A stretch of DNA of 64,000 bases from Octopus vulgaris (taxonomy: Eukaryota), in NCBI GenBank assembly GCA_951406725.2, contig OX597816.1, forward strand, positions 68,076,001-68,140,000, read 5' to 3'. Below, one piece after another: positions 4,980 to 62,773 of the stretch. Positions within the stretch are counted from its first letter, which is position 1, and every line of letters begins with the position of its first letter. The translations under genes and the position numbers were made by a program. Below the pieces are notes generated by a model that did no database searches, had not been told where the DNA came from, and saw only the letters and a list, made by a program, of their open reading frames with translations.

Positions 4980-5074
4980 ATATAGATATATATGAATGTA
5001 TATGTACATATATATGTATATATATGAAAAAACAAGTAAAAAATAGAAAATGCTAAAATAATTTTATAGTGAAC

Positions 5075-5120
5075 ATTTCAGTACCGGTTTCGGTCATTTT
5101 GAGACCTTTTCAACTGTAAC
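5075..5120 (-). ncRNA. Hammerhead ribozyme motif, U3-A8 variant (mirror copy)
   Basis: Exact reverse complement of 5701-5746, on the left arm of the large palindrome. Confidence 0.6.
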
Positions 5121-5700
5121 GATTAAATAATTAAATTTAGAAAAATTAGAAGAAAAGTTTTTTAAAAGAATATTTCTATAGTAGTGTTCAGATTTAAGTG
5201 GCATTCTGCCTTTCTCTGACTCCCTTGTTTGCACTTGTGTGTTCGAGGTAGTTGTGAGTTCTTGGTAGGGTAGTAGAGGGAAGGCTGGTGAGGAAAGGGG
5301 GGTGGGAGAATCTGGGAGTGCCCTGATGGTCAGGGCACTCCCAGATTCTCCCACCCCCTTTCCTCACCAGCCTTCCTCTACTACCCTACCAAGAACTCAC
5401 AACTACCTCGAACACACGTTGTGAGTTCTTGGTAGGGTAGTAGAGGGAAGGCTGGTGAGGAAAGGGGGTGGGAGAATCTGGGAGTGCCCTGATGGTCAGG
5501 GCACTCCCAGATTCTCCCACCCCCTTTCCTCACCAGCCTTCCCTCTACTACCCTACCAAGAACTCACAACTACCTCGAACACACAAGTGCAAACAAGGGA
5601 GTCAGAGAAAGGCAGAATGCCACTTAAATCTGAACACTACTATAGAAATATTCTTTTAAAAAACTTTTCTTCTAATTTTTCTAAATTTAATTATTTAATC

Positions 5701-5746
5701 GTTACAGTTGAAAAGGTCTCAAAATGACCGAAACCGGTACTGAAAT
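5701..5746 (+). ncRNA. Hammerhead ribozyme motif, U3-A8 core variant
   Basis: cag-TTGAAAA-ggtc-tcaaaat-gacc-GAAAC-CG-GTA-ctg. The C3-G8 pair is replaced by U3-A8; stems I and II pair. Confidence 0.6.
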
Positions 5747-5831
5747 GTTCACTATAAAATTATTTTAGCATTTTCTATTTTTTACTTGTTTTTTCATATA
5801 TATCAACTCGTGTGTTCCTTTTCACCCTTAT

Positions 5832-5899
<68 letters not shown>

Positions 5900-33263: not shown

Positions 33264-33432
33264 CGGCCATCGGAAACTTACATTCTTTTGTTGTCTCTTT
33301 CATTCTTTCATTCTCTTTCATTCTCATTCTTTTGTTGTCTTACCCTTTCTATCAATATATATATATATATATATATATATACATGAAAAAACAAGTCAAA
33401 ATAGAAAATGCTAAAATAATTTTATAAAGAAC

Positions 33433-33478
33433 ATTTCAGTACCGGTTTCGGTCATTTTGAGACCTTTTCAACTGTAAC
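33433..33478 (-). ncRNA. Hammerhead ribozyme motif, U3-A8 variant
   Basis: Same motif as 5075-5120, in a dispersed copy (33383-33605) of the same repeat, flanked by (TA)n. Confidence 0.58.
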
Positions 33479-33612
33479 GATTAAATAATTAAATTTAGAA
33501 AAATTAAAAGAAAAGTTTTTTTAAAGGAATATTTGTATAGTGTTCAAATATAAGTGGCATTCTGCCTTTCTCTGTCTCCCTTGTTTGCACTTGTGTGTTC
33601 GAGGCCGTATAA

Positions 33613-42673: not shown

Positions 42674-43885
42674 ATATGTTTATGTGTCTGTGTTTGTCCC
42701 CACCCCCAATATCGCTTGACAACCAATGCTGGTATGCTTACGTTCCCGTAACTTATCGGTTCGGCAAAAGAGACCGATAGAATAAGTACTAGGTTTACAA
42801 AGAATAAGTCCTGGGATCGATTTGTTCAACTAAAGGCGGTGCTCCAGCATGGACACAGTCACATGACTGAAACAAGTAAAAGAATATATATATATAAAGA
42901 AGCATTAGTTATAGAACAAACATTAAATTTCGGTGAACGACTTAGCATACAACACTAACCCTCAAACATTTAATCATATATAAAAAAAAACACCATGGTC
43001 TACAAACACTTAAAAAATAATGCATATACATAAAATCACAGAATGTAAAAAATATATATACTAATAAAATATTAATAAAACGGCTTATCAAAAGTTAAAT
43101 ATAACGACTAAAAATTCAAAACTGTCAAAAAGCCTAATGGACAATATAAAATAAAGATAAAAATAAAATAAGTGTCCACCGACTAAAAAGATTTTATCAG
43201 ACGATTATAATATTTAAAAAAATTATATAAAAAAAAAAGAAACAGTCTTTTACTTCTCTCACACAGGTACGTCCAAATTTCTTATGTAAGCAGACTTCCA
43301 CAGCTCAAATTCACATTCCTCTTGAAAAAAGCCTTTTACTCCCCTCACACAAATACGTTCAAAGTTCATAATAAACACATATCACCGGTCAAATTCAACA
43401 TTTACATATATCTTTGGCCATTTTGGATGCTCATCACCGCAGTTCATTTACACTAAAGTGCATCACGGCGATGACCCCTTCATCAGGATAACCATGAAAC
43501 ATGCACAGATCAGATCTTTTATGTGAATATGATTAATATTTTTCTTTAAGTTCTGACATAGTTTTCTATTAGACTTATCTTTGTTTTTCCCTTCAATTTG
43601 TTTTCTAAAATAAATTTCATTGGGCCCTAGGATTCATAATTCCAATCGCTCGATTTTCCACGACATATAAGTGATCGAGATTACAACACTTCCATAGAAC
43701 GGGACGCCGGTCCATCGCAGTGTTACTTATTTACGGATGAGCAAACTAGAGGAATGCGAAATGAAGTGTTTCGTTCAAGAACACAACACACCGACAAGGA
43801 AAATGCCATTTGTATTTGAACACTATACAAATATTTAAAAAAGCAAACTTTTCTTTTAATTTTCTCTGAATTTAATTGTTTAATT

Positions 43886-43929
43886 GTTACAGTTGAAAAA
43901 GTCTCAATGACTGGAACCGGTACTGAAAT
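43886..43929 (+). ncRNA. Diverged U3-A8 hammerhead motif
   Basis: cag-TTGAAAA-agtc-tcaat-gact-GGAAC-CG-GTA-ctg. Stem II has a compensatory G-C to A-U change; the GAAA to GGAA change probably inactivates it. Confidence 0.45.
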
Positions 43930-43979
43930 TGTTTTTATAAAATTATTTTAGCATTTTCTATCTGGACACTGTTTTTTCC

Positions 43980-44757
<778 letters not shown>

Positions 44758-48733: not shown

Positions 48734-49047
48734 TTTTGTTGAGTTCAAAGTGAACAGTGATACATAAAAATCCAAAATTATAGAAATTCAAGCCCAAAAT
48801 ATGAACGAGATCATCCAGCGTCCCCACGTTGATGGAATGACATTATCAGTCTTCAATTTTCAAGTTTACAACTGGCAAAAAGAAAAATAAAGATAAAAAG
48901 AGAGAAAAAGTTGTAAACTTGGAAATTGAAGACTGATGATGTCATTTCATCAACGTGGGGACGCTGGATGCTCTCGTTCATATTTTGGGTTTAAATTTCT
49001 AGAATTTTGAATTTTTATGTAACATTTTCCATTTTGAACTCATCAAA
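48734..49047. repeat. ~140-bp inverted repeat with an A-rich spacer
   Basis: catccagcgtccccacgttgatg...aagtttacaact / agttgtaaactt...catcaacgtggggacgctggatg. Confidence 0.9.
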
Positions 49048-62539: not shown

Positions 62540-62773
62540 TAGTATAATAAATAAAATATATGCATACATACAAACATATATGTACGTAACTACATCTACA
62601 TGTATATATACATGCATATATAAATATATATATACATGTGTACAGGACACCGCAAATAGACGTGGTGTCCTGTACACACGTATATATATTTATATATGCA
62701 TGTATATATACATGTAGATATAGGTACGTACATATATGTTTGTATGTATGCATATATTTATTTATTACACTAT
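62539..62773. repeat. ~115-bp-arm palindrome
   Basis: Apex tgtgtacaggacacc-(loop)-ggtgtcctgtacaca, with complementarity extending through the non-periodic AT-rich flanks. Confidence 0.85.

Follow-up and report, generated by a model that had tools for sequence, protein, structure and literature searches.

Genomic fusions at the predicted cut of a U3-A8 hammerhead motif in an abundant Penelope-like element family of Octopus vulgaris

Natural hammerhead ribozymes in which the C3-G8 core pair covaries to U3-A8 were described by Perreault et al. (2011) and found to be active in vitro (PMC3088659). According to Cervera and de la Pena (2014), the variant is also present in the pLTRs of Penelope elements from Schistosoma mansoni, where a descriptor of its own returned about 1,300 matches. 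The same source characterizes the minimal hammerheads of Penelope-like elements (PLEs) by a palindromic helix III, dependence on dimers and low activity in vitro, and presents an extra base between A9 and 10.1 as one of their common traits, with no part in catalysis (PMC4209133). Cleavage of PLE hammerheads as dimers is also covered by a review (PMC6765202). Minimal hammerheads are reported to be slowed by a C3-G17 trap, and hammerhead cleavage to leave a cyclic phosphate and a 5'-OH (PMC3884650). A 2021 survey called the function of Penelope hammerheads unclear; it names pLTR partial tandems, inverted truncated copies and a one-sided tail of 30–40 nt as traits of EN+ PLEs, and a Zn-finger-like CX2-5CxxC linker as characteristic of the groups Neptune and Nematis (PMC8557442). 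For an element of the anole, the reverse transcriptase (RT) is described as priming internally at the tail and the hammerhead as needing protein; insertion in vitro did not require the ribozyme, and no RNA-seq reads were reported to end at the cut (PMC11167929). Further related literature includes PMC13247085 and bioRxiv 10.64898/2026.07.22.740005. The U3-A8 core is thus already published, Penelope elements included, and the motif as first described at the present locus is an ordinary one. Whether weak Penelope hammerheads cut inside cells is the question to which the octopus family speaks.

The window analyzed here comprises 64,000 nt of the Octopus vulgaris genome (contig OX597816.1; assembly of 2.8 Gb in 227 contigs). 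Direct reading of 5701–5746 (+) yielded the letters given in the preliminary description (UUGAAAA, GGUC/GACC, GAAAC-CG-GUA and CAG/CUG), and together with a descriptor search and the predicted fold it delimits a minimal type I hammerhead motif on the plus strand. Stem I (CAG 5705–5707 / CUG 5740–5742) is extendable by 5700–5703/5744–5747, the core UUGAAAA extends from U3 (5708) to A9 (5714), stem II pairs GGUC (5715–5718) with GACC (5726–5729), and GAAAC-CG-GUA (5730–5739) includes the palindrome ACCGGU (5733–5738). In hammerhead numbering, G2.1 is 5707, G12 is 5730, A15.1 is 5733, U16.1 is 5738, A17 is 5739 and C1.1 is 5740. All elements of the PLE type I core are found at 5708–5739, namely N3-U4-G5-A6-N7-N8-A9, G12-A13-A14-A15.1 (5730–5733) and U16.1-H17 with a Watson-Crick 3-8 pair; helices I and II flank the core, and the chain ends lie in helix I. 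The extra base between A9 and 10.1 is absent, since G5715 directly follows A5714. The identity of the motif as a hammerhead whose core has U3-A8 instead of C3-G8 was thereby borne out, and a CUGANGA descriptor does miss this family, as had been stated. Cleavage had been predicted 3' of A5739, and this bond (A17/C1.1, 5739–5740, +) is the one at which fusions to U6 and to foreign hammerheads begin in other copies of the family. The Rfam scan of the window gave no Hammerhead_1 (RF00163) among the 150 matches listed of 333, those listed being microRNA-like noise on hairpins, and none of the 59 genome matches to RF00163 (from 73 scored candidates) lies at the window locus.

The motif alone folds no better than its shuffled versions (z −0.85 and +0.22). 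In the predicted monomer, helices I and II form (P 0.76 and 0.97) and helix III is absent (P(15.1-16.1) = 0), while the predicted minimum of the two-copy cofold (−27.1 kcal/mol) is a strand-swapped dimer with a 6-bp intermolecular helix III via ACCGGU; the dimer format suggested earlier is a sensible assay design. The monomer is predicted to form a U3-A17 pair (P = 0.70) that extends stem I across the cut site; the form trapped in this way is predicted to be 2.2–2.3 kcal/mol more stable in both monomer and dimer. As modelled, this pair is an analogue of the C3-G17 trap and counts against activity. PLE hammerheads are said to cleave as dimers in the work of Lunse et al. 2017, which may bear on U3-A8 or A17 variants.

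The relaxed hammerhead descriptor matched the window exactly four times, always with U3-A8 (U3 at 5708 (+), 5113 (−), 33471 (−) and 43893 (+)); three of these copies fit the exact pattern, which none of 100 shuffles did. The four copies reported before are therefore real as motif matches, but they represent only three insertions, because 5113 and 5708 are arms of one palindrome. This palindromic insertion (5018–5834) has an arm-to-arm identity of 96.6%. Its right arm (5496–5834, +) is the 5'-truncated 3' end (pLTR) of an element, with a 96% match to the 4,386-nt tandem unit of copy L210, and bears at about 5804–5834 (+) a one-sided tail that equals the start of the next unit and is followed by (TA)n. 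The left arm (5018–5331, −) is inverted, 5'-truncated and tailless, carries its hammerhead at 5075–5120 (−) and is preceded by (TA)n, and two short pLTR fragments of opposite orientation occupy the palindrome center (5330–5497). The second insertion (33377–33608, −; hammerhead 33433–33478) lies between (TA)n runs and belongs to a subfamily with a long stem-II loop and the pair G10.1-C11.1. The third (43802–43988, +; hammerhead 43886–43929) belongs to an older, short-loop subfamily with A10.1-U11.1. Its stem II AGUC/GACU and shorter (5-nt) loop had been described correctly, but a core change, A13G (GGAAC instead of GAAAC), had been overlooked; this change, present in 4 of 125 aligned copies, places the 43886 copy outside the PLE type I core. 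Elsewhere in the window, 48803–48979 and 62594–62719 form long near-perfect hairpins, which are probably further inverted insertions.

With stem II left free, the genome-wide pattern gave 3,869 matches, compared to one for the reversed control, and the Penelope-like family that they represent is young and very abundant. Longer copies carry frames of 712–784 aa with RVT_1 and GIY-YIG domains, for which E-values of 3.2e-8 and 3.5e-4 (the latter below the Pfam cut-off) were obtained in frames of 747–784 aa; in the frame of L062 the scores are 34 bits (cut-off 29.6) and 21.2 bits (cut-off 22.6), respectively. This RT and GIY-YIG frame stops 738 nt upstream of U3, and its translation contains between RT and EN a C-x4-C-x2-C linker of the Zn-finger-like CX2-5CxxC form. 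Copy L210 is a partial pLTR tandem of the 4,386-nt unit (from 5209, −), in which the tail runs on through the 5' UTR into the AUG of the next unit, 123 nt after C1.1 of the upstream ribozyme. Inverted arms are found in the window and in L062, L063, L067 and L213, with the tail on one arm. Based on the frames of the EN+ element, the tandem unit, the 96% match, the (TA)n flanks and the one-arm tail, we identify the motif as the hammerhead in the pLTR of an EN+ Penelope-like element, and the insertions of the window as 5'-truncated stubs of this element without a frame. A transcript of 5018–5830 is predicted to fold into a single hairpin (774 of 813 nt paired), with ribozyme helix probability near zero, and the copy at 5701–5746, as part of a truncated, frame-less and inverted stub, is predicted to be inert and locked in this hairpin.

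The coding region of the element is split. In all three copies scored (L210, L066 and L175) an N-terminal frame overlaps the RT-EN frame at an offset of −1; it runs from its AUG over 397 codons to a UUUUUUA run and stops 13 codons beyond it, and the RT frame opens 7 codons ahead of the same run. The run, which we take to resemble a slippery-site motif, is retained in two older copies (L083 and L217) and is followed by weak structure only (−2.1 kcal/mol). The arrangement looks like a programmed −1 frameshift, an intron being the alternative; the literature covered contained nothing relevant on frameshifting in Penelope-like elements. In a further copy (L192; G000:C6:110675393, − strand), 13 of 25 A near the ribozyme are replaced by G with no other substitution, and the copy is likely to derive by retrotransposition from an RNA hyper-edited from A to I. 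The same A-to-G runs occur across the core in contigs of run X13, which may be DNA and has no genome paired with it.

When both core positions were left free, 3,129 matches were obtained, and U3 and A8 were present in all of the 100 listed, so that a C3-G8 subfamily inside the octopus Penelope family was sought there in vain. Other families of the genome have either C3-G8 (the L109 group, L374, L064) or U3-A8 (L207, L221), and one group of related donors in the fusions described below mixes the two cores (L186 and L361 vs L207 and L340); the 3-8 pair covaries between families only. The related L221 family (positions 457 (+) and 422 (−) of L221) combines U3-A8, A17 and the palindrome ACCGGU with GCAA replacing GAAA in both arms. 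Other C3-G8 hammerhead families occur at L099–L118, several of them with CCGAAGA (C at position 4), and eight of these matches score above the Rfam cut-off. No account of the Penelope family that carries the motif was found in the literature covered; the supplements of PMC4209133 may list it or octopus motifs.

The double change in stem II noted in the 43886 copy is not private to it but separates the two subfamilies, which comprise 2,149 long-loop matches (mean identity to own majority, 97.8%) and 819 short-loop matches (95.0%). Among the first 100 rows of the former, scored by eye, the 10.1-11.1 pair is G-C in 84, G.U in 15 and U.U in 1; the first 100 rows of the latter, scored likewise, have A-U in 78, G.U in 11, A.C in 6, G-C in 1 and other combinations in 4. 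Covariation pointing to selection on structure had also been proposed. Pairing is indeed kept, but the change is a single event between subfamilies, and 33 of 500 shuffles attained the covariation score of 62 copies (37 distinct). At least as many two-sided pairs as in these copies occurred in 319 of 500 shuffles, 91% of helix cells are paired across the 37 distinct copies, and columns 10.1 and 11.1 are independent within the short-loop subfamily (p = 1). Inside 5705–5742, the substitutions between the subfamily majorities are confined to the two paired columns, accompanied by a 2-nt loop indel, as against 22 of 162 differing positions outside, in a comparison for which many loci were chosen with patterns fixing the core. 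This pattern is suggestive, although it amounts to one event. CpG decay as the origin of U11.1 was rejected, as 95 of 100 short-loop rows are without C11.1 or paired otherwise, and TpG outnumbers CpA by 15 to 1 in 100 long-loop rows scored by eye (p 0.0005). Since most G.U copies also cluster on a tree built without stem II (206 columns), this imbalance and the tree grouping fit a stepwise path from A-U through G.U to G-C.

A junction query for copies with a base other than A before C1.1 returned 42 rows from 39 insertions, all of which were classed. In 21 of the 42 rows a new junction begins at C1.1. The upstream partner is the 3' end of U6 snRNA in two insertions, a foreign hammerhead's 5' half with a terminal GUC in four, a SINE-like piece in three and, in one (L179), a segment from inside the first frame of the element itself. 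In this last case, unit positions 1235–1559 are joined to C1.1 head-to-tail, the arrangement expected from a partial circle or a self-jump. A control query at one offset, three bases downstream, gave 45 rows, of which 30 (29 insertions) were classed; seven of these 30 rows contain new junctions, all plain truncations or inversions. Fusions to U6 or to hammerheads were accordingly found in 6 of 39 insertions at C1.1 and in 0 of 29 at +3 (p 0.034).

A U6 pattern with a free junction (gap of 0–30 nt, 31 offsets) had seven matches. Six are insertions in which the U6 3' end, including its U tract, is joined directly to retroelement sequence at C1.1; the seventh is a native copy with a deletion and without U6. 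Rfam detects U6 above cut-off at five of the six fusion loci, the sixth holding a short U6 piece. Because U6 terminates in U5, whereas the base natively preceding C1.1 is A, these fusions show no microhomology. Starting instead from U6 itself (415 matches; 99 ends classed), two ends match the 4,386-nt unit, and both are joined at C1.1. U6 is joined directly after GUA in two more families as well (L290 vs L374; L353 vs the L221 family). A tandem U6 gene cluster is located at G000:C1:139.42 Mb (L254–L260). By a rough classification, SINE-like repeats are the partners of 61 of the 99 U6 ends, which are attached at or near the 5' ends of these repeats (L247–L353), and such common joins mean that the capture of U6 needs no ribozyme. 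The argument for cleavage rests on the single-base position of the junction and on donors with a 3' end at their own cut.

Such donors were found with the foreign-hammerhead pattern. Among its 20 rows, seven (six insertions) are foreign 5' halves that bring their own core, stem II and GUC or GUA directly before C1.1; native variants, deletions or truncations account for the remaining 13. Relatives of the donors in their native form (L064, L207) have other sequence after their own cut. Donor and acceptor do share GAAAC and GU close to the junction, as would be expected if the hybrids had arisen by homology-driven recombination or by template switching between related cores, but this origin appears very improbable: the terminal C17 of five of the six donors stands in place of the acceptor's A17, the native post-cut base of the L347/L369 donors is U rather than C (L064), both of which fix the junction to the scissile bond, and the U6 fusions share no homology at all. 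On their 3' side, the acceptors show diagnostic features of both subfamilies (in L340, the ones found in the window copy), and several fusions resemble Penelope insertions in lying within (TA)n or in possessing an inverted arm or the tail. Fusions are rare, with 12 insertions against about 3,900 copies. As genomic sequences, they are an indirect trace of cleavage and end joining in vivo. Nothing on fusions of U6, or between families, at Penelope ribozyme cuts was found in the literature covered, where U6 chimeras are treated in connection with LINE-1 and SINEs or with RtcB.

The 5' end at C1.1 might instead be generated by transcription starting there, by a protein nuclease or by RT stalling at stem I, in which case the motif would be a structural signal or a vestige locked by U3-A17. 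The predicted U3-A17 trap and a monomer without stable helix III are in line with this, as is the weak in vitro activity of PLE minimal hammerheads (PMC4209133), and simple truncations and inversions are somewhat commoner at C1.1 (new junctions in 21 of 42 rows vs 7 of 30 at +3, p 0.028). We nevertheless consider it improbable, because the fusions match the scissile bond to the single base in three families and because donors stop exactly at the GUC or GUA of other hammerheads, which neither a start site nor a stall can bring about; the restriction of the subfamily substitutions in the motif to paired columns speaks further against this account.

Thus, it is likely (rough probability, 0.78) that the motif represents the minimal hammerhead of a young Penelope-like family, located in its terminal repeat, and that the RNA of this family self-cleaves after A17 (5739) in cells. 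In the proposed course of events, a transcript across a tandem copy would undergo cleavage at the ribozyme, probably in a dimer held by the 6-bp helix III of ACCGGU or with the assistance of the element's protein. Cutting at A17 would give the downstream RNA a 5'-OH and the upstream RNA a 2',3'-cyclic phosphate. An RtcB-type ligase might then join these ends, usually re-closing the element RNA and sometimes adding U6 or the product of another ribozyme. RT would start internally in the tail, 65–95 nt behind the cut, copy over the junction and insert the product into (TA)n. Ordinary copies, which keep an intact ribozyme and about 60 nt behind the cut, would derive from uncut or re-joined RNA. 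Because of the rarity of the fusions, cleavage may be a side reaction. As to the ligase, the fusion of U6 to LINE-1 (L1) by RtcB is reported to require a cyclic phosphate and a 5'-OH (PMC6789731), and RtcB to circularize hammerhead-cut retrozyme RNA far better than self-ligation does (PMC7229834).

DNA sequence reads alike for ligation and for RT template jumping, and the latter is the chief alternative explanation of how the ends were joined. The ribozyme would again cut at A17/C1.1, so that cleavage of the same bond is still required, and RT would run off the cut 5' end and jump to the 3' end of another RNA, with neither ligase nor circle. End-to-end jumping fits the U6 joins at or near SINE-like 5' ends (61 of 99) and the SINE pieces and first-frame internal piece (L179) that are also joined at C1.1, and template switching is listed among the routes to LINE-1 chimeras (PMC11838501). 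The best-defined partners, U6 and the 5' products of hammerheads, are nonetheless expected to end in cyclic phosphate, the substrate of RtcB, and we regard jumping as a serious but rather unlikely account of the joining. A broader version of the preferred reading, cleavage followed by ligation, has in our estimate an even chance of being right: Penelope minimal hammerheads, even those with U3-A8 and a maskable cut, would cleave in the germ line and feed a shared pool of cyclic-phosphate and 5'-OH ends, joined by a tRNA-type ligase. If so, element RNA would close into the circle proposed for Penelope replication, Penelope families, U6 and SINE RNAs would swap ends exactly at ribozyme cuts, and genomic fusions would provide a single-base map of ribozymes active in vivo.

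Taken together, the motif is real, a known variant with weak covariation, and its local copy is predicted to be inert, while its family appears to bear base-precise, though indirect, fossil evidence of cleavage in vivo. The fusions offer such evidence for a variant core and name the RNA ends to be sought, and cross-family fusions at the cut would be a route for the shuffling of retroelement ends.

The closest described relatives are the Cercyon U3-A8 hammerheads of Schistosoma mansoni, with which the octopus motif shares type I topology, a short helix I, palindromic 15.2-16.2, G10.1-C11.1 and a pLTR location; the Cercyon motifs, too, mostly occur as single or inverted truncated copies 100–700 bp apart. 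In contrast to Cercyon, which has a helix II of 7–8 bp and an extra base between 9 and 10.1, the octopus motif has a helix II of 4 bp and no extra base, and its family includes an A10.1-U11.1 subfamily and an A17 that can pair with U3. That paper states that there is no in vivo evidence, whereas in the octopus family fusions mark the cut (PMC4209133). Compared to the U3-A8 hammerheads presented in PMC3088659, the octopus motif is minimal, dimer-type, retroelement-borne and without evident loop contacts. The fusions resemble the U6/LINE-1 chimeric pseudogenes (Moldovan et al. 2019), in which a U6 3' end with U5 is likewise joined to retroelement RNA and retrotransposed. There, however, the L1 partners are described as variably truncated, whereas the octopus partner has a single starting base, at a ribozyme cut; mobilization is by a Penelope element instead of L1, and other ribozyme products are partners as well (PMC6789731). 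Similar to the Anolis Poseidon element PAc, the octopus hammerhead lies just upstream of the internal RT start that gives the one-sided tail, but PAc has C3-G8 and a cut inside its frame, with no RNA ends reported at the cut (PMC11167929), whereas the octopus cut is 123 nt before the AUG of a split frame. The element as a whole, a putative Neptune-type PLE, agrees with the EN+ Neptune and Nematis elements as outlined by Craig et al. (2021) in having an RT, a Zn-finger-like linker, a C-terminal GIY-YIG, a pLTR, inverted truncated copies and a tail (PMC8557442). EN+ PLEs are described as single-frame, whereas the frame of the octopus element is in two parts, offset by −1, in the copies checked.
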